A stretch of DNA of 10,384 bases, taken from positions 1 to 10,384 of the forward strand of contig JBGAOA010000100.1 of the NCBI GenBank assembly GCA_044222065.1, written 5' to 3'. The stretch comes from Candidatus Eiseniibacteriota bacterium (lineage in GTDB: Bacteria; Eisenbacteria; RBG-16-71-46). Of the stretch, positions 1 through 10,384 are shown in pieces. Both the position numbers and the translations under genes were made by a program. Under the pieces are notes generated by a model. It saw only the letters and a program-made list of their open reading frames with translations, was not told the DNA's origin and searched no databases. Position 1 is the first letter of the stretch; each line of letters begins with the position of its first letter.

Positions 1-49
1 CTCGGGGCGAAGGGCTGCTCCGCGATCGCGCGGGTCGAAGGACTGCTTC

Positions 50-201
50 GAGGGCGGGACGAACCGAGCAAGATGCCCTTTCGGGCACGCCGAGCCCGCG
101 CGGAGCCAGGACGGTGGAGCGCGGGCGAAACGTAGCGAGCCGGAGCAGGATGCGGAGGCGAGCGGCCAGGAAGGGCCTCTTGCTCGTCTCGCCCCGCCCT
201 C
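50..201 (+). repeat. Structured GGA-displaying element, copy 1 (70-nt core 94-163 inside a long closing stem); candidate ncRNA or REP-like element
   Basis: Core 94-163 is 65/70 identical to 8635-8704. Closing stem: GAGGGCGGG 50-58/193-201, CGAGCAAGA 65-73/178-186, GCCCTT 75-80/171-176. Intergenic location. Confidence 0.9.
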
Positions 202-240
202 CAGGTAGACTTTCGTCTCTCTCACGCGGCTCCGAGACGA

Positions 241-279
241 AACTCGCGCGGCACCGATGTGGAACTCGCGCGCCACCGA
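241..279. repeat. 17-bp direct repeat, 22-bp period
   Basis: AACTCGCGCGGCACCGA (241-257) and AACTCGCGCGCCACCGA (263-279), one mismatch. Confidence 0.7.
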
Positions 280-317
280 AACACGACGCGCGCGGCCCCG
301 GAGAGCCGCGCGCGTCG
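279..317 (-). terminator. Probable intrinsic terminator or 3' hairpin of the beta-barrel gene
   Basis: Perfect 13-bp stem CGACGCGCGCGGC (284-296)/GCCGCGCGCGTCG (305-317) with an 8-nt loop, about 20 nt past the stop at 339. Followed on the minus strand by a weak U tract, TGTTT. Confidence 0.6.
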
Positions 318-338
318 CGCGTCAGGTTCGCGGTTCGC

Positions 339-1040
339 TCACCAGTACCAGTTCAGGTTCAGCGACACGTTCGCGAAGTTCGCCGAGCGGCCCGGGCCCG
401 CGTTGATGTACGTGATCTCCGCCATCGGGCCGATGCCGAGACGCTTGCCCCAGCGCCACTCGTAACCGAGTCCGAGCGCCGCGGCGAAGCCGTCGTCGCT
501 GACTTCGTAGCGCAGCGTGTCCACGTAAGCGGGAACGACCGTCGCCGGCGAGTTCTGGAGCGCCGTGAAGCGGCTGCGCATCACGCCGCCGCCGGCCGCG
601 AACCGCACCCAGCCGCCCTTGAGCTTGCCCTGATCGGCGCGGATCGTGACGCTCGGCATGATGCCGCGGAACGTCCACGTCGAGCTGTCGGGCGCCGACT
701 CCCACTGGCTCATCTCGGCGCCGACCGAAACGTTCGGCTTCACGGCGTAGGTGAGGCGCACGTTCGCCGACGGACCGATCTCGCGATCGAACCGCTTGCC
801 TTCGACCTTCTGCTCGACGCTGCCCATTCCGTACGCGAAGCCGACGCTCCACGCCGACGGGGTCACGGGCGTCGTGGCCTTCTTCACGCTGTGGCGTTTC
901 TGCTTCTCGGGCTTCGGCGCTTCGGTGCCGGCCGCGGCCTTGTCGGTGGGGGCGGCCGGCTTGTCGTCGGCCGCGAAGGCCGTCGTCAACGCGAGGCCGA
1001 GGATGAGCGGCGCGACGGCCGCGAACGCGCGAAACCGCAT
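339..1040 (-). CDS. Outer-membrane beta-barrel protein (small, probably about 8 strands), 233 aa
   Basis: Sec signal peptide (MRFRAFAAVAPLILGLALTTAFA), then an A/P/K-rich linker. Alternating amphipathic strands follow (WSVGFAYG, VRLTYAV, VSVGAE, LGLGYEWRW), ending in an aromatic C-terminal strand VSLNLNWYW (BAM-type signal). GAGGAG RBS upstream. Confidence 0.88.
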   Translation of the reverse strand: MRFRAFAAVAPLILGLALTTAFAADDKPAAPTDKAAAGTEAPKPEKQKRHSVKKATTPVTPSAWSVGFAYGMGSVEQKVEGKRFDREIGPSANVRLTYAVKPNVSVGAEMSQWESAPDSSTWTFRGIMPSVTIRADQGKLKGGWVRFAAGGGVMRSRFTALQNSPATVVPAYVDTLRYEVSDDGFAAALGLGYEWRWGKRLGIGPMAEITYINAGPGRSANFANVSLNLNWYW

Positions 1041-1096
1041 GAACGATCTCCTCGAGGAATCCCGGATGGGCCCGGTGCGGATGGAACAGGCCGGGA

Positions 1097-1126
1097 ACCT
1101 TAGCGGTAGGGAGGGGGAAAGGACAA
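1097..1126 (-). promoter_or_regulatory. Putative sigma70-type promoter for the beta-barrel gene
   Basis: Minus strand TTGTCC (1126-1121)-N18-TAAGGT (1102-1097). Same GCTAAGGT -10 region as the promoter at 4045-4073. Confidence 0.5.
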
Positions 1127-1166
1127 ACGCGGGCGATTCTCCGGCGCGGTCCCGGCGTGCGCCCCT

Positions 1167-1919
1167 CTACCCCCCGAAACGCTCCTTGAGCCGCGCGGCC
1201 CACGTGCTCGTCGAGTCGTGCGCGAGGTATTGCGCGGCGGCGAGGCGCGCTTCGGCCTCGCGCTCGACCGCGGCGAGCAGCAGCGCGCGATCGTAGAGCG
1301 CCGCCGCGAACGCCGGCTGATCCGCGCGCACCGCGACGAGCTGACCGAGCGCGCGGAGCCGCAGCGCGCGCACTTCGCGCTCGTCCGTGCGCGTGAGCGC
1401 GTCGAGCGCGAGCGCCACGCCGTAGCCGAGGTGCGCCTCGGCGCAGTAGCCGGGCAGGATCAGCGCCTCCTCGTAGCGCCGCTCGGCGCGCGCGAGTTCG
1501 CCCTCGAACAGCAGCAGGTGCGCATCGAACGCCGCGAGGCGAGGGTCGAAGGGGCGCCGGTCGCGCGCTCGCGCAACCATGAGCCGCGCATCGAGCAGCC
1601 GCAGCCCGGCGCCGTCGTCGGCCGCTTCGGCGAACGAACCGACGAGCGCCGACGCGAAGCGCAGCTCGCCGGCGCTGAACGGCACGCGGCCCTCGAGCAG
1701 CGAATGCGCGGCGCGCACGTCCGCGTCGTCCGGCAGGCCGTCGTGCGACTGGCCGCGAACGAACAGCGACACGGTCGCCATGGTGCCGAGCCCGACGAGC
1801 ATCACGAGGAAGCCGAGGATCGGCAGCACGCGCCAGCGCAGGCGGCGGTCGAGATCGTCCGTCGGCGGGAGCGGCGACGCGTTCGCGGGGGCGGCGGGCG
1901 GCGTGTCGGGGCGCGACAT
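1167..1919 (-). CDS. Membrane-anchored TPR-like helical-repeat protein, about 250 aa
   Basis: Part of ORF 1167..2210, with the start placed at MSRPDTPP (ATG 1919). Sequence upstream is R/A-rich and overlaps the divergent gene. One TM helix (VLPILGFLVMLVGLGTMATVSLFV) is followed by TPR-like motifs (GELARAERRYEEALILPGYCAEAHLGYG; AAALYDRALLLAAVEREAEARLAAAQYLAHDSTSTWA). Confidence 0.78.
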   Translation of the reverse strand: MSRPDTPPAAPANASPLPPTDDLDRRLRWRVLPILGFLVMLVGLGTMATVSLFVRGQSHDGLPDDADVRAAHSLLEGRVPFSAGELRFASALVGSFAEAADDGAGLRLLDARLMVARARDRRPFDPRLAAFDAHLLLFEGELARAERRYEEALILPGYCAEAHLGYGVALALDALTRTDEREVRALRLRALGQLVAVRADQPAFAAALYDRALLLAAVEREAEARLAAAQYLAHDSTSTWAARLKERFGG

Positions 1920-2095
1920 GGGCCGGCACGTTAGCGAGCGGGCCGGGCGACCGCCAGCCCCGCGTGGTGCGGGTTGCCACGGCACTTCGCGCTGGAGCCC
2001 CGCGGGACCGCCGACTAGATTCGCCGCCGCGCGGATCATGGACTCGCGCCTCGGCCCGGCGAGCGGGCGAGTCGTATCGAAACGGAGGGATCGGA

Positions 2096-2971
2096 ATGCG
2101 CGCACGAGTTCGCGCCGGCACGCCGGGGCGCGCGGGACGGGGAACGCGATTCGCCGTGCTCGCGCTCGCGCTCGCCGGCGCCGTGGCGGGCTCGTGCGCC
2201 TCGCCGCCACGAAGTCCGGCTCCGAGTCCCGCGCTGCACGCCGTCGCCACCGCGAACGGGTACGAGCTGCCGCGGACCTCGCCCTCGGGCATGCTCCACG
2301 TCGTGTTCGAGAACCGCGACACGACGACGCACGAACTTATGTTCATCCGGCTCGCGCCCGGCATGACGGGCGACGCCTACGTCGCGGCGGTGCGGTCCGG
2401 CGCCGACTTCCCCGAGGGCGCGATCGATTGCTCCGGCATCGGGCTCACCGGCGCGGGCGAGCGCGCCGAGGCCTGGCTGCGTCTCGAGCCGGGCGAGTAC
2501 TTCCTCGCCTGCTGGTATCGCGGGCATCTCGAGCGCGCGCGCGTCCAGACGCTCGCCGTGACCGCGGACACGACCGTCGGCATCACGCCGCCGCCGGCCG
2601 ACGTGTCCGTGCGGCTCGCCGACTTCCAGTTCGACCTGCGCGACTCGGTCGCGAAGGGCGAGCGCGTGCTGAAGGTCGAGACGCTCGGGCCTTCGAAGCA
2701 CGAGATGGACATCTTCAGGCTCGAGGAGGGCAGGAGCCTCGCCGAACTGCGCGCGTGGATGCACGCGGGCAAGCGCGGACCGGGGCCCGCGACGCCCGTC
2801 GGCGGCGTGCTCGACAGCCACGACCTGGCCCGCGTCGTGTGGCTCAAGCGCGACTTCGCGCCGGGACGCTACGTCCTGTGGTGCGGCATGCCGATGGTGG
2901 ACAACGTCGAGATTCCGAACGGCCAGCACGCCGACGCCGGCATGGTGCGCGTCTTCGTCGTTCCGGAATGA
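2096..2971 (+). CDS. Lipoprotein with two tandem cupredoxin-like domains, about 291 aa
   Basis: GGAGGGA RBS at 2084-2090 before ATG 2096. Hydrophobic signal ends in lipobox-like AGSC. Internal duplication: HELMFIRL...LEPGEYFLACWYRGH and HEMDIFRL...FAPGRYVLWC-x14-HADAGM, matching the His...Cys-His-Met type-1 copper ligand pattern. Confidence 0.82.
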   Translation: MRARVRAGTPGRAGRGTRFAVLALALAGAVAGSCASPPRSPAPSPALHAVATANGYELPRTSPSGMLHVVFENRDTTTHELMFIRLAPGMTGDAYVAAVRSGADFPEGAIDCSGIGLTGAGERAEAWLRLEPGEYFLACWYRGHLERARVQTLAVTADTTVGITPPPADVSVRLADFQFDLRDSVAKGERVLKVETLGPSKHEMDIFRLEEGRSLAELRAWMHAGKRGPGPATPVGGVLDSHDLARVVWLKRDFAPGRYVLWCGMPMVDNVEIPNGQHADAGMVRVFVVPE

Positions 2972-2974
2972 CGG

Positions 2975-2994
2975 CGCCGCGCGATCGCGCGGCG
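2975..2994. terminator. Perfect 20-bp palindrome between convergent stops (possible bidirectional terminator hairpin)
   Basis: CGCCGCGCGATCGCGCGGCG fills most of the 25-bp gap between the gene ends at 2971 (+) and 2997 (-). No U tract. Confidence 0.45.
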
Positions 2995-2996
2995 AC

Positions 2997-3887
2997 TCAG
3001 ATGCTGCGGCCGTCTTCCGCCTTCGCGATCCAGTCCCGGCCCGAGTCGAGGCTGCGGCGCGCGTTCTGGAAGTGCCGCGTGCACTCGATCGCGTAAGGCG
3101 GACGTCCTCCGCCCGCGGCCGAGCCCGTGACCGCGCCGAGTTCGCCGAGCGCGCGCTGCGCGCTGTCCCACGCGAAGCGCACGCGGAGCGAGACGGTCGA
3201 ATCCGGAGCCTCGGGCAGCGATTCGCGGAGGCGCGCGACGTCGTCGTCCCAGTCCACCGCCCAGCTCTGCCACGACTCCCGCACGCCGTCGTCCACCGTG
3301 CCGTCCGGGTGCGGCTCGCCGAGCCGGCCCGTGTCCCCGACGCCGCGCTCGATCTGCCGATCGATCCGGTCGAGCACCGGACGGAGCCGCGCGACGACCC
3401 AGCGGTCACGTTCGGACAGCTCGATCCGCGGCTCCTCGGCCGGGGCGACCGGGTCGGCTTCGCTGAAGCGGAACCACGAGGCGTCGTCGAACAGGTTCGA
3501 GCGGATTCGCATCCAGTTCTGCCGCACGCGCGCGAGCTCCGCTCCGCCGAGGCTGCCGGGTCCGCGGCACATCGCGGCGAGCGTGCCGAGTTCGCGCGCG
3601 CTGAAACGCGCCATGTGGGAATCGCTGCCGGCGAGCAGCGCCTCGCGCATCTCGTCGACCGAGGCCGCGAGCCGGACGCGCTGCTCCAGCGACAGCGGGG
3701 CGGGCGCGAAGAGCTGCGCTTCCAGGTTCGTGATCGGGGCGCGGAACTGAGCCGAGGAGAACACCGATTCGTACTTCGCGACGCTCACGAGCCCTTCGGT
3801 CGTGTGGAGTCCGTGGCCGGCGAACGCCAGCGCCGCCAGCACGGCGGCGACGCCGAGCAGGATTCTCACTCGCAGCATGCGCAGCAT
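2997..3887 (-). CDS. Hypothetical exported or membrane-anchored alpha-helical protein, 296 aa
   Basis: GAGGAGGAG RBS at 3900-3892. N-terminal signal/TM segment (RVRILLGVAAVLAALAFAG). Normal globular composition; no family recognised. Confidence 0.75.
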   Translation of the reverse strand: MLRMLRVRILLGVAAVLAALAFAGHGLHTTEGLVSVAKYESVFSSAQFRAPITNLEAQLFAPAPLSLEQRVRLAASVDEMREALLAGSDSHMARFSARELGTLAAMCRGPGSLGGAELARVRQNWMRIRSNLFDDASWFRFSEADPVAPAEEPRIELSERDRWVVARLRPVLDRIDRQIERGVGDTGRLGEPHPDGTVDDGVRESWQSWAVDWDDDVARLRESLPEAPDSTVSLRVRFAWDSAQRALGELGAVTGSAAGGGRPPYAIECTRHFQNARRSLDSGRDWIAKAEDGRSI

Positions 3888-4044
3888 TCGGCTCCTCCTC
3901 GCGCGATCGGTGTGTGTGGACGAATCCGCTCGCGATCTCCGTCCTTATCGGGCGGCGCGACGCGGGATTTCACTCCGCGCCGCCCCGGCGCCGAGCGGCC
4001 CGCGCGCGGGCCCGCCGCGGGCGCGCGTGCGTGGCTCCAAATCG

Positions 4045-4073
4045 TTGTCGCCCTAAAGAGTTGTTGCTAAGGT
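4045..4073 (+). promoter_or_regulatory. Putative sigma70-type promoter of the nuclease/ATPase operon
   Basis: TTGTCG (4045-4050)-N17-TAAGGT (4068-4073) with extended -10 TG at 4065-4066, in an AT-rich patch about 80 nt upstream of ATG 4154. Confidence 0.6.
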
Positions 4074-4153
4074 GCCGATCCAACGCGCATTGCGCCGCGC
4101 GGAGACATCGCACTCCGCGGCGCGTTCGTTTCCGACCGGAGGCCCGTTCCCGC

Positions 4154-5425
4154 ATGGCCGTCGCGACGTTCATCCAGGTCTCCGACCTGCACCTCGGCCG
4201 TTCGTTCGGCTGGCTGCCTCCGGAACAGCGCGCCGAGCGCCGCGCGGACCAGCGGCGCGCGCTCGAACTCGTGGTGCGCGAGGCGATCGAGCGCGGCGCG
4301 CTCGCGATCCTCGTCCCGGGCGACCTGTTCGACGCCGAGGCCGTGGACGCCGACACGCTCGCGTTCGCCGTGAGCGCCTTCAACGTCGCCGGCTGTCCGC
4401 CCGTGTACATCACGCCCGGCAATCACGATCCGTGGACCGAGTCGAGCCACCTCTGGAGCCAGCGCCTGCTGCGCGCGCGCGGCTGGGGCTGGCCCGATCA
4501 CGTTCACGTGTTCACGACCGCGAACTGGTCGCCGAAGGACGTGCCCGGCGCCGAGGGCGTGCGCGTGTGGGGCCGCGTGTTCACGTCGAGCGTGGTCTCG
4601 ACGAATCGCCCGCTCGCCGAGGGCTCGATCATCCTGCCGTCGTCGGCGGACGCGACCGGCCTCGACATCGCCGTGTTCCACGGCTCGCTCGAGGACCGCT
4701 GCCCGCCGCACCAGAAGGTGACGGCGCCGTTCACCGAGAACGAAGTGAAGCACTCGCCGTTCGGCTACCACGCCGTCGGCCACTACCACCAGCGCATCGA
4801 GCTGACGCACAAGGCCGCGCAGGAGACGTCCACGTCGTCGCGCGGCAACAGCGGCGTCGCGTCCGCCGGCGTGCGGCTCGCGTACGCGGGCTCGGCGATC
4901 GCGCTCGACGCCACGGAGTCGGGCACGCACGGCGCGCTCGAAGTGCGCATCGAGTTTGGCAACCGCCAGCCGTTCATCGAGACCGAGCCGATCGAGCTCG
5001 ATCGCCGACAGGTCTACGAGGTGAAGGCCGACGTGAGCGGCGCTTCGAGCGCCGAGCAGGTGGACCGCCGCATCGGCCGCGCGATCAGCGAGGCCGGAGT
5101 GAGCGAGCGCGACATCGTCGTCGTGCGCGCGCGCGGCCGGCTCGTGAAGGGCGTGCGCTACGGCGCGCCGGGTTCCGACGTCACGTCGCGCTGCTTCCAC
5201 GTGAAGCTCGACCTGCGCGAGGTGCGACCCGACTACGACCTCGACGCCTACCGCCGCGACGAACCGGGCACGACCGAGGAGCGGTTCGCGAAGGCGCTGC
5301 TCGAGAAGCTCGACGCCGAGAAGGACCCGAACGAGCGCGCGCTGCTCGAGTCGGCGCTCTACTACGGCCTCGACGCGTTCCGGCTGCGCGAAGTGGTTCC
5401 GGCCTACGAGGAGCTGGGCGAATGA
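4154..5425 (+). CDS. yhaO: Mre11/SbcD-family metallophosphoesterase DNA nuclease (YhaO-like), 423 aa
   Basis: All five phosphoesterase motifs are present: SDLHLG, GDLFD, GNHD, FHG, GHYH, plus YAGS. The start MAVATFIQVSD fits the family N-terminus. The stop overlaps the next ATG (ATGA, 5422-5425). The symbol denotes family resemblance, not proven orthology. Confidence 0.93.
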   Translation: MAVATFIQVSDLHLGRSFGWLPPEQRAERRADQRRALELVVREAIERGALAILVPGDLFDAEAVDADTLAFAVSAFNVAGCPPVYITPGNHDPWTESSHLWSQRLLRARGWGWPDHVHVFTTANWSPKDVPGAEGVRVWGRVFTSSVVSTNRPLAEGSIILPSSADATGLDIAVFHGSLEDRCPPHQKVTAPFTENEVKHSPFGYHAVGHYHQRIELTHKAAQETSTSSRGNSGVASAGVRLAYAGSAIALDATESGTHGALEVRIEFGNRQPFIETEPIELDRRQVYEVKADVSGASSAEQVDRRIGRAISEAGVSERDIVVVRARGRLVKGVRYGAPGSDVTSRCFHVKLDLREVRPDYDLDAYRRDEPGTTEERFAKALLEKLDAEKDPNERALLESALYYGLDAFRLREVVPAYEELGE

Positions 5426-8307
5426 AGCTCGTGCGCCTCAAGGTCGAGGGCTTCGGCTCGCTCAAGGGCGAGTTCCGCTTCGATCCCGATCGCGTGACGC
5501 TGGTCGTGGACGACAACGAGCGCGGCAAGTCCACGCTGATCGCGGCGATCAACGCCGCGCTGTACGGCCTCGAGGACGACCGGCGCTCGTTCCGCACGAT
5601 CACCCCGCTCGAACGCTGGCGGCCGTGGGGCGGGGGCGCGTACCAGGTCGAGCTCGAACTCGAGCACGGCCACGAGCGCATCGTGATCCACCGCGACTTC
5701 GAGCGCGGCACCGTGTCGGTGTTCAACGGCTCCGGCAAGGAGATCACCGAGAAGTACCGCGCGGGCAAGGACGAGTTCCCGGTCGGCAAGACGCTCTTCG
5801 GGCTCGACGAGTCCGAGTTCGAGAAGTGCGCGCTGCTGCGCCAGGGCGAACTCGACCTGGTCGTCCCGGCCGAGGAGCGCGCGCGCCGTCATTCGACGCT
5901 GCACGCGCGGCTCGAGAACGCGGCCGACACGAAGGTCGGCGACACGAACGCGACCGAGGCCGTGCAGGTGCTGCAGTCGGCGACCTCGGCGTACACGTCG
6001 CCCGAGCTCGGCACGACGATGAAAGTCGAGAGCGCGATCCAGAAGCTCGAGGCGAAGCTCGGGCTCATCGAGGCCGACTTGAAGGCGAGCGAGCACGATC
6101 TCGCGACGATCGCCGATCCGATGGAAGAGCTGTCGAAGCTGGCCGACGAGGAGTCCGCCGTGAAGGGCTCGCTCGACCAGCTCGACGCCGAGCGCCGCGT
6201 CGGGCTCGCGCAGGAGCTGCGCCGCAAGCTCAAGGACGACGACGGCCATCGCGACGAGTGGGAGACGCTGCGCCGCGAGGCCCGCAAGCTCGAAGAGATG
6301 CGCGTGCTGCCGCCGAACGCGGAAGCCGACCTGCGCGACGCCGTCGCGCGCCACGAAGAGATGCTCCGCAAGCTCGACGCGCTCGAACAGCGCCGTGTCG
6401 AGGAGCAGACGCGCGAACGCTCGCGCGTCGAAGAGGAACTCGAGACCCTCAAGGCCTATGCCGCGTGCACGTCGGACGACGCCGACCGCTTCATCGCGCT
6501 CGCCTCCGAGCTGCGCCGCATCGCCGACGAGGACGAGCGGCTCCGCACCGAGACGTTCAATCTGCGCGACTCGATCGCGAGCCGCGGCCACGAGCCCGAG
6601 CGCATGGGCGCGCTGCGAGAGCGCTTCGGCGAGCTGTCGGGCGAGCAGGAGAAGCTGCTGCGCGGCCAGTCCGAGCTCGCGCTGCAGTTCCAGACCGAAG
6701 TCGCGACGCTCGAGAACGCGCGCACCGAGGCGACCGAGACGCTGCGCTCGATCGATGCGCTGCGGAACGCGCGCCGGCTGCCGGGCTGGGTGCTCACCGC
6801 GCTCGGCCTCGGACTCGCCGCCGCCGGCTTCGCGCTGCTCGCGCTCAAGACCGCGGCGCCGCTCTGGACCTCGATGCTCGCGATCGGCGGCGTCTCGATC
6901 CTGATCGGCCTGCCGCTGCTGCTGTCGGGCGCGAACGCGAAGCAGGACGAACGCGAGGACGCGCTCCGCAAGCTCGCCGACGCCCAGCGCCGGCTGAACC
7001 AGCTGCGCCAGCAGCGCGCCGAGAGCGAAGTGAACGTGAACGAGCTGTCGCGCTCGATGGGTTACCGCGATCCGGTCGAGCTGCTGCGCGACTGGAACGA
7101 GTACACGCGCGTCATGGACGAGAGCGGCCCGATCTACAAGGCCGAGTCGCAGCTCCAGGCCCTGCGCGACCAGCGTTCGGCCGCGCTCGCCGAAGTGAAG
7201 TCGCTGCTCACGAAGATCGGCGGCGGCTCGCCGGACCCGGGTTTCCTCGAGCGCGCCGCGCACAGCGTGCGACTGCACCTCGCGGGCCAGAAGCAGCTCA
7301 ACGAGATCAGCAAGGGCTGGGGCTGGATCGAGGAGGAGAAGCGCGTCACGGAAGCGCAGGCGAACGGGCTCCGGGAGCGCGCGATCAAGGTGCTCGAGCA
7401 CGCCGGCATCGACCACGAGGACGGCAAGCCGTGGGCGGACTATTTGCGCGAGATCGGCGAGCGCGCACGCACGGGCCAGCGCCTCGAAGTGCTGCGCTCG
7501 GAGCTGATCCCGCAGGCCGAGCGGCGAATGCTGCCCGAGACGCAGGTCGAGGAGATCCGCGCGCAGCTCACGGGCCTCGAAGCCGTGGGCCCGATTCCGG
7601 ACGACGCGAAGGCGCGCCCGCAGGCGGACCTCGAGGCGCAGACGATGCTGCTGCGCGCGCAGCTCGACTCGGTGAAGAACCGCCGCCAGGACCTGCGCGT
7701 GCAGGTCGAGGACGTGTGGCGCAAGGTCAACGTCGGCCGCGCCGAGAAGTCGTCCGAGCTGGACCGCATCCAGCGCGCGCTCGACCACGCGCGCCGTTTC
7801 CAGCGCGCCGTGGCCGTCGCGACCGAGACGATCCAGAGCGTGTCGGTCGAGACGCACCGCCGGTGGGCGGACCACCTGAACGAGCGCGTGCGCGAGCTGC
7901 TGAAGCCGCTCGGCACGGGCGTCGAGCAGGTGCGATTCGGCGAGGACCTCGATTTCTCGATCAAGCCCGTGAACGGCCAGCAGGCGCCGCGCGGCAAGGC
8001 GACGGCGCAGCTGTCAGCCGGCGCGCGCGACCAGCTGTACCTCGCGATCCGGCTCGCGGTGAGCGAGTACCTCGCGCGCGGCCAGGCTCCGGCGCCGCTG
8101 CTGCTCGACGACGCGTTCGCGACGAGCGACGACTCGCGCGCGGCGGCGGGCATGCACCTGCTGCTCGAGCACTTCTCGAAGCAGCACCAGGTGATCGTGG
8201 CGACGTGCCATCGCAAGCGTCACGAGTCGATGGCGGCGAACGACGCGAAGCTGTGGGAAGAGCGCGTGCAGTGGCTCGACCTCGGCGCGGCGGTCCGCCA
8301 GGGCTGA
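5422..8307 (+). CDS. yhaN: Rad50/SbcC-like SMC-family ABC ATPase (YhaN-like) with central transmembrane hairpin, 961 aa
   Basis: Starts MKLVRLKVEGFG. Walker A variant DDNERGKST (5509-5535), long coiled coils, two hydrophobic helices at about 6784-6930. Signature LSAGARDQLYLAIRLA (from 8011), Walker B LLLDDAF, H-loop ATCH. ATGA coupling to the nuclease. The symbol denotes family resemblance. Confidence 0.92.
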   Translation: MKLVRLKVEGFGSLKGEFRFDPDRVTLVVDDNERGKSTLIAAINAALYGLEDDRRSFRTITPLERWRPWGGGAYQVELELEHGHERIVIHRDFERGTVSVFNGSGKEITEKYRAGKDEFPVGKTLFGLDESEFEKCALLRQGELDLVVPAEERARRHSTLHARLENAADTKVGDTNATEAVQVLQSATSAYTSPELGTTMKVESAIQKLEAKLGLIEADLKASEHDLATIADPMEELSKLADEESAVKGSLDQLDAERRVGLAQELRRKLKDDDGHRDEWETLRREARKLEEMRVLPPNAEADLRDAVARHEEMLRKLDALEQRRVEEQTRERSRVEEELETLKAYAACTSDDADRFIALASELRRIADEDERLRTETFNLRDSIASRGHEPERMGALRERFGELSGEQEKLLRGQSELALQFQTEVATLENARTEATETLRSIDALRNARRLPGWVLTALGLGLAAAGFALLALKTAAPLWTSMLAIGGVSILIGLPLLLSGANAKQDEREDALRKLADAQRRLNQLRQQRAESEVNVNELSRSMGYRDPVELLRDWNEYTRVMDESGPIYKAESQLQALRDQRSAALAEVKSLLTKIGGGSPDPGFLERAAHSVRLHLAGQKQLNEISKGWGWIEEEKRVTEAQANGLRERAIKVLEHAGIDHEDGKPWADYLREIGERARTGQRLEVLRSELIPQAERRMLPETQVEEIRAQLTGLEAVGPIPDDAKARPQADLEAQTMLLRAQLDSVKNRRQDLRVQVEDVWRKVNVGRAEKSSELDRIQRALDHARRFQRAVAVATETIQSVSVETHRRWADHLNERVRELLKPLGTGVEQVRFGEDLDFSIKPVNGQQAPRGKATAQLSAGARDQLYLAIRLAVSEYLARGQAPAPLLLDDAFATSDDSRAAAGMHLLLEHFSKQHQVIVATCHRKRHESMAANDAKLWEERVQWLDLGAAVRQG

Positions 8308-8321
8308 ACCGCGTCGCGCCT

Positions 8322-8346
8322 GCGCGTTCGTCGCTGACGGACGCGC
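8322..8346 (+). terminator. Hairpin just after the ATPase stop
   Basis: GCGCGTTCGTC (8322-8332)/GACGGACGCGC (8336-8346): 11 bp with one U-G pair, 3-nt loop, no U tract. Confidence 0.35.
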
Positions 8347-8379
8347 TGCCGAAGGTGCCGCGACTCGTAGCCCACTGAC

Positions 8380-8524
8380 GCGCTGCGGAGGACGCCGGGG
8401 GCCTCGCCGGGCCCGCTCGCCTCCGCATCCTGCTCCGGCTCGCTACGTTTCGGCCGTGCTCCACCTTCCTGGCTCCGCGCGGCCTCGACGTACCCGGCGA
8501 GCCCTCCTGCGTCCCCCGCAACGC
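8380..8524 (-). repeat. Structured GGA-displaying element, copy 2 (inverted; core 8415-8484)
   Basis: Reverse complement of 8415-8484 is 69/70 identical to 8635-8704. It has its own closing stem: CTCGCCGGG 8403-8411/8493-8501, GGACGC 8390-8395/8509-8514, TGCGG 8384-8388/8516-8520. Confidence 0.9.
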
Positions 8525-8591
8525 TGCGCATCACTGAAGGGCACGGCCATCGCCTGCTACACGCCGAGCAGGGAGCGGACGCGCCATCGCA

Positions 8592-8741
8592 GCCCGAGGA
8601 GGCTCCTGGGCAGAGCCCTTTCCGGGCACGCCGAGGCCGTGCGGAGCCAGGAAGGTGGAGCACGGCCGAAACGTAGCGAGCCGGAGCAGGATGCGGAGGC
8701 GAGCGGCCAGGAAAGGGCTCTGGCCAGGAGCCTTCTCGGGC
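8592..8741 (+). repeat. Structured GGA-displaying element, copy 3 (core 8635-8704)
   Basis: 32-bp closing stem 8592-8623/8710-8741 with one G-G mismatch and one G-U pair, enclosing the two-hairpin core. Confidence 0.92.
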
Positions 8742-8817
8742 GTGAGCGAGCAGAAGGCGGACTTCCGGGCGTCAGCGAGCTGAAGGCGAACTTGCGGGCG
8801 TCAGCGAACTGAAGCCG
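8737..8817. repeat. 29-bp tandem repeat, about 2.8 units
   Basis: CGGGCGTGAGCGAGCAGAAGGCGGACTTC (8737-8765), CGGGCGTCAGCGAGCTGAAGGCGAACTTG (8766-8794), CGGGCGTCAGCGAACTGAAGCCG (8795-8817). Confidence 0.85.
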
Positions 8818-8820
8818 CGT

Positions 8821-9024
8821 CTACGCCCGTTCGCTCCGTTCCAGCTTCGGCAAACGCTCGAGCTGCGAGATGCGCGCGCGCATGACGCGCTCGAGCGCCG
8901 ACGTCACGAGCAGCGCTCGCCACACCTTGCGCGCCTGGAAGAGCGCCGCCACCGCAACCGCGACGAGCATCATCGCGAGACCCACCGGCTCCGACACGGC
9001 GATCCACTCCACGCGATCGAACAC
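8821..9024 (-). CDS. Small single-pass membrane protein, 67 aa
   Basis: GTG start with a GAGGAG RBS (9036-9031) overlapping the upstream stop codon. One TM helix (VGLAMMLVAVAVAALF) followed by a basic amphipathic tail. Confidence 0.7.
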   Translation of the reverse strand: MFDRVEWIAVSEPVGLAMMLVAVAVAALFQARKVWRALLVTSALERVMRARISQLERLPKLERSERA

Positions 9025-9034
9025 GAGCGCCTCC

Positions 9035-9463
9035 TCAGTCCTGCGAGCGGACGAGCCACGAACTCAGGAGTAGCGCGGCGCCCACCGTGATCGGGATGAT
9101 GCCGACCGCCCAGGCCGAGTCGTTCGGCTGGATGATGCGCAGGAACACGAGGATCGAGACGCCCGCGGCGATCGTCACGATGCCGCCGATGAGCAGTCCC
9201 TGCGCGCGGCGCTTGGCGACGTCGCGCGGAGACCAGAACATGGAGGCGAGGTCGCCGCTGGCCGTCGGGAGCGGCGGCAATTGCGCCGGATCGATCCCGC
9301 GCTCGATCGCGGCGATCCGTTCGCGCTGCGCGAGCTCGACGAGGCGCTGCTGGCCGATCATGCGCACGATGCCCGCGGCGATGCCGCCGATGATCGCGAC
9401 GATCGGAATGCTGAAGGCCATGAACGGAACGACGAATTCGGGACTGAGCAGGTCGAGCAGCAT
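9035..9463 (-). CDS. Three-TM membrane protein, DUF6249-like, ECF-sigma associated, 142 aa
   Basis: GAAAGGAG RBS. TM1, then RLVELAQRERIAAIERGIDP, then two C-terminal TMs (GLLIGGIVTIAAGVSILVFL; WAVGIIPITVGAALLLSSWL). This layout resembles DUF6249 proteins as I recall them; not HMM-verified. Confidence 0.8.
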   Translation of the reverse strand: MLLDLLSPEFVVPFMAFSIPIVAIIGGIAAGIVRMIGQQRLVELAQRERIAAIERGIDPAQLPPLPTASGDLASMFWSPRDVAKRRAQGLLIGGIVTIAAGVSILVFLRIIQPNDSAWAVGIIPITVGAALLLSSWLVRSQD

Positions 9464-9523
9464 GTTCGTGGCTCCTTTCGGCGGCGCTCCGCCGCGGCGG
9501 GTGGCTCCGGTTCGGGTTTCGCA

Positions 9524-9556
9524 CGGTTGGACGGGGAGTTCCTCGCCGAGGTTTCA
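9524..9556 (-). promoter_or_regulatory. Putative ECF sigma promoter for the membrane-protein operon
   Basis: Minus strand TGAAAC (9556-9551)-N17-CGTCCAACCG (9533-9524). Confidence 0.72.
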
Positions 9557-9599
9557 GCCCTCTCCGCGGACGTCGCGCGCGGCACGGGCCGAACTTCGA

Positions 9600-9633
9600 T
9601 GAAACCCGGCGCCTCCGAACCCCCGTCCAACCG
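9600..9633 (+). promoter_or_regulatory. Putative autoregulatory ECF sigma promoter
   Basis: TGAAAC (9600-9605)-N18-CGTCCAACCG (9624-9633), with boxes identical to the divergent copy. ATG 9638 follows almost immediately. Confidence 0.7.
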
Positions 9634-9637
9634 GGCG

Positions 9638-10215
9638 ATGGAGCCCGCCCCGGCCGCCGCACCGGCCCCGGGCGCCGCCGACGAAGCGGCGCTCATCGCC
9701 CAGGCCCGCCTCGGCGACGCCGCCGCGTTCCGCGTACTGGTCGAGCGCCATCAGGATCACGCCTACGGGCTCGCGCTGCGGCTGCTGCGCTCGCCCGAAG
9801 ACGCGCGCGACGTGGCGCAGGAGTCGTTCGTGCGCGCGTGGCGATCGCCTTCGAGTCCGCGAGACTCGCGCTTCGGGACATGGCTGCACCGCATCGTCGT
9901 GCGACGCGCGCTCGATCGCGCCGACGCGCTGCGCCGCCGTCGCGCGCGCGAGGACGCGCTCGAGCGCGGCGCCGAGATCGCGGCGCCGTCCGAAGAGCCC
10001 GGCGCCGGCGAACGGGCGCGGCGGCTCGAGGCGCTCATGAGCCGGCTCTCGGACGCGCAGCGGCTCATCGTCACGCTCTTCTACTTCGAGGAGCGATCGG
10101 TCGCCGACGTCGCGTCGCTGCTCGGCATGCCCGAAAACACCGTGAAGACGCACCTCCACCGCGCGCGCGCCGCGCTGCGCGAGGGCTGGGAGCGGCAGGA
10201 AAGGGCGGCGCGTGA
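9638..10215 (+). CDS. ECF-family (sigma70 group 4) RNA polymerase sigma factor, about 190 aa; natural stop apparently displaced by a 1-nt deletion
   Basis: Hand translation, as it is absent from the ORF track: DEAALIAQARLGDAAAFRVLVERHQDHAYGLALRLLRSPEDARDVAQESFVRAW...SRFGTWLHRIVVRRALD (region 2) and LSDAQRLIVTLFYFEERSVADVASLLGMPENTVKTHLHRARAALRE (region 4). As given, the frame stays open to the window end; TGA 10213-10215 is one base out of frame. Alternative in-frame ATG at 9599. Confidence 0.9.
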
Positions 10216-10384
10216 ACGACCGGCCGCGGGATCCAAACGCGGACGCGCGCTTCGAGGCGTGGCTCGACGCCGCGCTCGCGCCGCTGCGCGAGCGCGCCTC
10301 GAAGCTTCGCGGACGGCGTGGCCGCCCGCATCGCCGCCGCGCCGGGAGGCGACGCCGCGTGCCGCGCGCGATGCCGCGTCCGTC
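10212..10384 (+). CDS. Probable anti-sigma factor N-terminus (partial, apparent frameshift near 10300)
   Basis: GTGA overlap at the sigma 3' end gives MNDRPRDPNADARFEAWLDAALAPLRERA. A shifted frame from 10306 reads FADGVAARIAAAP, resembling the P-x-x-F-x-x-x-V-x-x-R-I helix of anti-sigma N-termini. Confidence 0.5.
   Translation, partial: MNDRPRDPNADARFEAWLDAALAPLRERASKLRGRRGRPHRRRAGRRRRVPRAMPRP

Follow-up and report, generated by a model that had tools for sequence, protein, structure and literature searches.

The window analysed here, a stretch of 10,384 nucleotides that constitutes contig C24 of a metagenome-assembled genome of Candidatus Eisenbacteria (4.2 Mb in 131 contigs, 72% G+C, 94% complete), contains three copies of a structured, GGA-rich repeat. 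These copies probably represent a family of palindromic repeats of about 140-150 nt, found in one clade of the phylum, that spreads as small non-autonomous mobile DNA and is not a dedicated regulatory RNA gene. The entire hairpin is duplicated as one unit, and copies are gained and lost among species of one genus. The family is not represented in Rfam: a search of the whole window against Rfam 15, at E values up to 1, returned no match, in agreement with the preliminary description of this DNA, in which the repeat was not recognized as a named family. The element is best understood as a palindromic DNA repeat, scattered and probably mobile, of the same kind as the Rickettsia palindromic elements (RPE), the repetitive extragenic palindromes (REP) and the miniature inverted-repeat transposable elements (MITE), with an unusually elaborate conserved core. 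To our knowledge, Candidatus Eisenbacteria have no cultured member, and no work on genome repeats was found among the sampled titles and abstracts of the literature that names this phylum.

The copies in the window, and the sequences directly attached to them, are located as follows:

36-215 (+): copy 1, whole hairpin; model match 67-179, core 81-165, outer stem 36-86/165-215 (78% complementary)
8380-8524 (-): copy 2, whole hairpin; model match 8399-8510, core 8413-8497, outer stem 8380-8411/8493-8524
8592-8741 (+): copy 3, whole hairpin; model match 8608-8720, core 8622-8706, outer stem 8592-8627/8706-8741 (92% complementary); hairpin 1 at 8635-8668 and hairpin 2 at 8675-8705, with equivalents in copies 1 and 2
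8525-8591: spacer of 67 nt separating the 5′ ends of the head-to-head copies 2 and 3, unlike the spacers of other pairs
8732-8814 (+): tandem repeat with a 29-nt unit (2.8 copies) that begins within the last 10 nt of copy 3

The sequences quoted in the preliminary description are found where it placed them, copy 1 being measured at 36-215, and the common core, which had been put at 70 nt, extends over about 85 nt with 94-96% identity. The repeat finder reported a direct repeat between 71-183 and 8612-8724 (89%) and inverted repeats pairing 8413-8506 with 8613-8706 and 82-165 with 8413-8496 (93% each). Outside the core, the outer stem is self-complementary and particular to each copy. Copy 1 lies at the start of the contig. 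Contig C122 ends in another copy (C122:20476-20564) with the same core, whose 3′ arm pairs with the 5′ arm of copy 1 without a mismatch; the outer stem of copy 1 may therefore be an assembly chimera, and the window contig and C122 probably break in, or swap across, one repeat. By our own reading of the letters, a third, more diverged 29-nt unit of the tandem repeat extends to 8828 and covers the stop codon (8821-8823) of the gene that follows on the minus strand.

An alignment of 44 copies (A1) was analysed with RNAalifold, and a covariance model with 39 pairs (R1) was then built and used for searches. In the source genome R1 detects 10 copies, three of them at or near contig ends, and BLAST finds further copies in the same genome and in 20 of 60 relatives. 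Across the order, R1 matches are present in 74 of 102 genomes, with 1-35 matches per genome and about 554 in total, so that the suspicion of a genome-wide family, originally raised by three copies in 10 kb, is borne out and extends to the clade. The distribution by family is uneven: the element is found in 71 of 88 genomes of family f1, in 2 of 3 of f2 and in none of the 10 of f3. An even sample of the phylum gave the element in 49 of 151 genomes, all of them from f1, f2 or f14, with none in the 14 other families sampled (for example, 0/32 in f11 and 0/12 in f17); the element is confined to one clade of Candidatus Eisenbacteria. A sequence-pattern scan over bacteria and archaea, with one genome per species, returned 45 loci, and those records that name a taxon are mostly Candidatus Eisenbacteria, along with several entries labelled ‘uncultured bacterium’ and a few other taxa. 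The matches in Streptomyces, Kitasatospora, Nocardioides and a gammaproteobacterial bin, which span 57-74 nt compared with the typical 50-53 nt, are presumably chance matches. Matches of the typical 52-nt length also occur in bins titled Saccharimonadales and Candidatus Cybelea, which more probably reflects mis-binned Eisenbacteria contigs than a genuine presence of the element there. Viral contigs yielded no pattern matches.

Folding of all three window copies gives the twin hairpins as they had been described. The fold consists of a long, variable outer stem that leads to a three-way junction from which the two hairpins emerge. The GGA strand is far more stable than shuffled sequences (z from -5.7 to -10.3 for the three copies, with 0 of 200 shuffles equally stable), and the opposite strand is nearly as stable (z from -4.7 to -9.2). 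Covariation strongly supports the structure, as the preliminary description had proposed to check: RNAalifold detects double changes in 9 of 13 pairs and, when 87 R1 matches (76 of them distinct) are aligned to the model, 88.5% of the cells of the 76 distinct copies pair, compared with 63.0% in shuffles and 33-39% with slid partners, and both sides have changed in 33 of the 39 pairs, with support for all six helices, although these counts come from a model-fitted alignment, which favours structure. In the unfitted alignment, too, hairpin 1 shows many pair exchanges from GC to CG and from GC to AU, and a GCC/GGC-to-GGC/GCC swap is visible in hairpin 2.

Both apical loops have the form A-GGA-U/C and are closed by a C-G pair, and each base of their GGA is kept in 72-76 of the 76 distinct copies. 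In the 3×3 internal loops, G-N-A faces G-G/A-A; 64-74 of 76 copies retain the flanking G and A, whereas the middle base of the four loops is G in 32, 67, 59 and 58 of 76, respectively. At the foot of hairpin 2, 72-75 of the 76 copies retain the tandem GA/GA. The earlier claim of six invariant GGA motifs thus holds in part: all six are identical in the three window copies and the apical two are near-invariant in the family, but the four internal ones vary in their middle base, and these may rather be structural purine-purine loop motifs, possibly with G.A pairs.

In 69 copies, the outer stem comprises 14-52 matched pairs (median 29), and it is the pairing that is kept, not the sequence. Its mismatches are distributed asymmetrically between the strands, with 44 of the G.U type compared with 21 of the A.C type and 47 of the G.A type compared with 8 of the C.U type in the 69 copies, although these counts are not independent because the copies are related. 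Judging from this asymmetry, selection would act on the GGA strand, folded as a single strand; in the model region the counts of G.U (81) and A.C (75) give no such signal. Whole hairpins measure 121-219 nt, mostly 140-152 nt, and tend to start and to finish with GC, with an A before them in 22 of 49 copies and a G after them in 22 of 49.

The behaviour of the copies is that of mobile DNA. Copy number varies from 0 to 27 within one genus. In genome G001, the copy on contig C15 occupies a 330-nt spacer between convergent genes, and the orthologous spacer in all five congeners is 38-210 nt long and free of the element, with flanks conserved at 74-82%. At the locus of a copy pair in G001, the congeners that have both flanks carry between them 319 nt to 5.8 kb and no element. 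A copy 460 kb away matches the plus copy of this pair at 94% identity over 170 nt, a stretch that comprises the whole hairpin with 10-20 nt on each side; a third copy shares only the core. In G022, eight copies have the same termini, and their arms are related, with differences that occur as paired changes. Together, the whole-hairpin duplicate of G001 and the shared termini of G022 indicate that the arms travel with the element and do not come from the target site. An origin of the outer arms in the local flank or in pre-existing terminator stems was considered and is not supported, the G022 and G001 copies carrying their own arms. In G017 the 5′ arm does contain the stop codon of a trpB-like gene (identified by eye), but five orthologues do not conserve the encoded tail. 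The preliminary description had mentioned a mobile repeat as an alternative to a protein-sequestering RNA, and this alternative fits the filled and empty loci of congeners, the duplication of the whole hairpin and the copies inside genes.

Close neighbours are arranged in a regular way. When two copies lie less than 1 kb apart on one contig, their 5′ ends face each other in all 12 such cases among the model matches listed, and BLAST adds one tandem +/+ pair (G076:C301). Within a pair the two copies are unrelated in their arms, and no relationship is seen between the spacers of one pair and another. Partial terminal tandem duplications flank many copies: in the window the 29-nt repeat at copy 3, and others on contigs C28, C60, C110 and C3 of the source genome and in several relatives. 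At C110:24400-24831, the outer arms are repeated on both sides and interleaved with two spacer sequences, the reverse complements of which occur on the other side in the same order, not mirrored. At C3:20061-20196, three tandem 87-nt units, each consisting of the 5′ arm and hairpin 1, precede the complete copy upstream of a gene for an ArgH-acetyltransferase fusion protein (see below). In G095 (contig C362; L082:785-1468), two head-to-head elements flank a 227-codon open reading frame (ORF) with a CxxCH motif that resembles a c-type cytochrome by eye.

For the analysis of placement, genes were called by the likelihood of GC content at codon positions, and among 50 sampled copies 41 have a called gene on either side. 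The flanking genes are convergent for 17 of these, tandem for 22 (10 copies in sense and 12 in antisense orientation) and divergent for 2. The 3′ end of a gene thus adjoins 39 of the 41, with no orientation bias. At least 5 of the 50 sampled copies are intragenic, and the genes that contain the element came to light through clustering of the copies' neighbour genes. The clearest series is provided by a DnaE-family polymerase (Pfam DNA_pol3_alpha, finger, HHH_6 and OB), in which the element is located between the finger and HHH_6 domains. The gene was found in 72 of 89 f1 genomes searched, and the distance between two conserved anchors could be measured at 28 loci: nine have 6-21 nt, five have 42-87 nt and 14 have 132-345 nt. 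All long inserts except that of G110 (325 nt) are multiples of 3 and free of stop codons (13 of 14), and 10 of the 14 match R1 at 39-98 bits, five in sense and five in antisense to the gene; the remaining ones look decayed. Filled and empty sites coexist within a genus, as in G112 compared with G027, G110 compared with G034, G016 and G111, and G019, G096 and G097 compared with G101 and G102. The inserts of G014 and G110 also hold terminal duplications, arranged symmetrically in the two arms. On contig C23 of G001, a further 48-bit model match (L204:940-1055) lies some 850 nt upstream of where the polymerase insert sits, in the same 1407-codon open frame, and may mark a second in-gene site.

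The other protein is the ArgH-acetyltransferase fusion (Pfam Lyase_1, ASL_C2 and Acetyltransf_1), the linker of which is filled in G022 (antisense) and in G016 (sense); in the source genome the linker is empty, the orthologue is shorter by 44 residues, and a copy of the element is found about 120 nt upstream of the gene instead. Copies are tolerated in-frame and in either orientation in surface-loop or linker regions of proteins, and copies so scattered, some of them in-frame inside genes, are likely to belong to a small mobile DNA element.

In the window, the head-to-head copies 2 and 3 lie between convergent genes and copy 1 faces the 3′ end of a gene:

339-1043 (-): gene with its 3′ end towards copy 1; aromatic residues at the C-terminus, outer-membrane-barrel-like by eye
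4154-5425: SbcD-like phosphoesterase gene, directly before the SbcC-like gene
5422-8307 (+): SbcC-like ATPase gene, the upstream member of the convergent genes that flank copies 2 and 3
8821-9036 (-): small ORF, called from codon-position GC only and assigned to no family, the downstream convergent neighbour of copies 2 and 3
9281-10384: gene for a sigma factor of the extracytoplasmic function type (Sigma70_r2 and r4_2), running past the end of the window

A Pfam search with the minus frame 322-2364 near copy 1, which differs from the called frame 339-1043, gave no match. The sbcD-sbcC-like operon (4154-8307; Metallophos; AAA_23 and an SbcC Walker B motif) stops 73 nt before the inverted copy pair. 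SbcCD is a nuclease that cuts DNA hairpins. The window's flanks show no synteny with about 77 loci of relatives.

Several points weigh against a mobile DNA repeat. No transposase or other mobilising gene was found in association with the element, no search having been aimed at a parent insertion sequence, and no reverse transcriptase (RVT_1) was found in the source genome, which speaks against this enzyme as the mobiliser. The only Y1_Tnp gene of the source genome (C107:15692-16030) directly follows a gene that looks lexA-like by eye; the flanks of the Y1_Tnp gene resemble no repeated sequence of the genome, and its contig contains no R1 match. Y1_Tnp is single-copy in 94 of the 102 genomes of the order regardless of the element: it is present in all 10 genomes of f3, which have no element, and in element-free genomes of f1, whereas f2, with 15 element copies per genome, gives only weak Y1_Tnp matches (28-38 bits). 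The co-occurrence with REP-associated tyrosine transposases (RAYT), which had been suggested as a check, is thus not observed in the 102 genomes, and RAYT was rejected as the mobiliser, showing neither adjacency to the element nor co-variation with it. Being single-copy in most genomes and lacking flanking repeats, Y1_Tnp looks like a domesticated HUH enzyme, possibly linked to the SOS response.

The insertion sites raise further difficulties. No target-site duplication was seen at the G001 copy pair or at the filled and empty DnaE sites, and no conserved terminal inverted repeat, the termini being common only within subfamilies and the outer arms different. No strain-level empty site that would fix the exact insertion boundaries was obtained, and the occupation of the DnaE loop could reflect one old insertion followed by many losses instead of repeated transposition. 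Furthermore, the core is conserved over whole genera and most stems are near-perfect, more than would survive the neutral decay of selfish DNA, and this could mean a host function. The dependence of the pair counts on a fitted alignment and the relatedness of the copies in which stem mismatches were counted, both noted above, belong here as well.

A host function could be sought at the 3′ ends of genes, where the copies might serve as orientation-independent hairpins that terminate transcription or hold off 3′ exonucleases, a role proposed for REP and for bacterial interspersed mosaic elements (BIME), with spread by recombination being incidental. This explanation, which we consider unlikely, accounts for the gene 3′ ends beside 39 of 41 copies in unbiased orientation and for the very stable folding of both strands. 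The available RNA evidence, which consists of assembled contigs at 2-4x depth from three unstranded RNA libraries with possible DNA carry-over, offers a weak hint that the hairpins mark the ends of transcripts from the neighbouring genes: of two contigs over the 3′ end of the sbcC-like gene, which come from separate studies, one stops at 8390 and the other at 8398, at the foot of copy 2 (a DNA contig extends to 8442, within this copy), a third RNA-library contig begins at 8755, 14 nt outside copy 3, and no contig from the three RNA-library runs covers 8399-8754. In another case (run X18), a 215-nt contig overlaps 87 nt of the copy on contig C3 at a depth of 3.7, about that of the neighbouring genes. 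However, TTTT is present within 30 nt downstream of none of 49 copies, and AAAA upstream of none of 48; in the region 8250-8900 neither an intrinsic terminator nor a sigma-70-like promoter was called, although the promoter consensus of the host may differ. In-frame copies in genes cannot be terminators, the orthologous sites of congeners do without the element, and a plain hairpin would suffice for such a role, leaving the branched core, the near-invariant loops and the strand asymmetry unexplained. The strong covariation in all helices would be expected of independent structured small RNA genes with a partner other than CsrA, the RNAs being released from longer transcripts by RNase III cleavage in the outer stem. 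A long outer stem in which pairing is conserved and sequence is not, as in the 14-52 bp stems of this family, is a typical signal for double-strand processing, and the head-to-head arrangement of 12 of 12 close pairs among the listed model matches would fit divergent transcription. Yet the sampled copies share no conserved upstream motif (the promoter types of the phylum itself may differ), the spacers of pairs are mutually unrelated, one pair is in tandem, copies occur in ORFs in both orientations, and presence varies among congeners, so that small RNA genes of this type appear highly improbable.

The resemblance to binding sites of CsrA calls for separate consideration, since the preliminary description proposed a candidate CsrA/RsmA-binding RNA. 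Under this explanation, the two apical loops of the transcribed GGA strand would clamp one CsrA dimer, and the dispersed copies would titrate the protein as a sponge. The CsrB repeat has the consensus CAGGA(U/A/C)G, and that of CsrA/RsmE sites is alike; both apical C-AGGAU-G loops match them, the loops being closed by C-G and reading CAGGAUG or a near variant, with GGA near-invariant at 72-76 of 76 per base. Purine-purine mismatches concentrate on the GGA strand, and the source genome has a csrA gene (C121:9151-9390; 79 aa; Pfam 91.6 bits), with no Pfam match in the neighbouring ORFs and no match to the FliW family anywhere in the genome. The case for a CsrA sponge thus consists of motif resemblance, and other observations speak against it. 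csrA is present in 96 of the 102 genomes of the order, including all 10 of the element-free f3 and f1 genomes without the element, which makes co-occurrence uninformative. The orientation of the copies is unbiased (10 sense, 12 antisense), in-frame copies within ORFs run both ways, a shared upstream motif and downstream T-runs (0/49) are missing, no sigma-70-like promoter was found between copies 2 and 3, Rfam gives no match to the Csr/Rsm families, and the internal GGAs lie in loops that keep their outer G and A but vary in the base between them. We know of no Csr small RNA in Eisenbacteria. A model of 2026 based on a Bacillus reporter, as outlined in PMC13443453, predicts few functional, repressing CsrA homologues in Eisenbacteria, which is a weak argument; its authors warn against taking the prediction as inactivity. 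A dedicated CsrA-sequestering RNA is therefore not supported, in view of the unbiased orientation, the in-frame copies, the lack of an upstream motif or T-run and the incomplete invariance of the GGAs, and CsrA titration as the role of the family seems quite improbable. A combination of the two ideas would be a mobile element with a ready-made CsrA clamp, in which two near-optimal C-AGGAU-G loops sit on a rigid G.A-braced scaffold, sense-transcribed copies tie their transcript, or a fragment of it, to CsrA, and the copy number of a selfish repeat sets the level of free CsrA; this scenario we regard as a long shot.

For a mobile palindromic DNA repeat, the following course of events can be proposed. 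An enzyme would recognize the folded GGA strand as single-stranded nucleic acid, which would explain why the branched core, the unpaired purines and the strand asymmetry are kept. During replication, template switching between the inverted repeats could keep the arms complementary, let them grow by partial duplication and flip the core. In other organisms, template switching between inverted repeats has been described, at least in outline, to homogenize and expand the arms and to invert the spacer (PMC8604942, PMC13100816, PMC8794818). The same process in Eisenbacteria would account for complementary but drifting arms, for the arm duplications and for both orientations at one protein site, three features that would then need no separate selection on each copy. 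Effects on host RNA, such as that of a 3′-end hairpin on neighbouring transcripts, would be secondary.

The element has practical and evolutionary implications. It breaks assemblies, as seen from the three copies at or near contig ends in the source genome, reshapes intergenic regions and adds 40-110 residues to enzyme loops, so annotators and protein modellers should recognize it. The filled and empty alleles of one protein loop across dozens of genomes provide material on how inserts arise, flip and decay, and the conserved branched core with its twin GGA loops points to a specific protein partner.

Several known systems resemble the element in part. Like CsrB, RsmY and RsmZ, it presents GGA in hairpin loops, and the two apical loops match CAGGA(U/A/C)G in a genome that has csrA; unlike them, it occurs in 1-35 mobile-like copies per genome, in either orientation and in part within ORFs, not as a few promoter-driven genes, and the unit has only two loop GGAs and no Rfam match. 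The TwoAYGGAY RNA motif also has two hairpins with the same GGA terminal loop and would suit a dimeric binder; the Eisenbacteria element differs by its long outer stem, three-way junction, G.A internal loops and lineage, and the Rfam search did not return this motif. Intrinsic terminators share the GC-rich hairpin but have a U-tract, which the element lacks (0/49).

The families of palindromic DNA are closer. REP, the paired REP sequences known as REPINs, and BIME are extragenic palindromes at the 3′ ends of genes and often form inverted doublets, as do the close pairs in Eisenbacteria. REPs are short with conserved arms, whereas the unit described here measures 121-219 nt and conserves the core while the arms vary. 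The vertical persistence of REP with a single-copy Y1 transposase, in the outline available for RAYT, has a parallel in the single-copy Y1_Tnp of 94 of 102 genomes of the order; in contrast, the Y1 gene of the source genome lacks flanking repeats and the family does not track the element. MITE such as Correia, ERIC, BOX and RUP are likewise small, non-coding, structured, multicopy and insertion-polymorphic, and some are, according to a partial account, occasionally intragenic with in-frame fusions (PMC10969869), but the Eisenbacteria copies show neither conserved terminal inverted repeats nor a target-site duplication.

The likeness to RPE is one of behaviour. RPE are dispersed palindromes of about 150 bp, without an identified transposase as far as the account in PMC10969869 extends, that occur between genes and in-frame in unrelated ORFs, to which they add a peptide segment (PMC10969869); the in-frame copies in the DnaE-family polymerase and the ArgH-acetyltransferase are comparable, and the element would constitute a second, independent case of Rickettsia-type palindromic DNA in-frame in genes, here in a free-living, GC-rich lineage. 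It differs from RPE in belonging to another phylum with a genome of 72% G+C, in conserving a branched core with two G.A-rich hairpins while its outer arms vary, and in occupying one and the same protein site in both orientations, with most of the sampled copies being intergenic.

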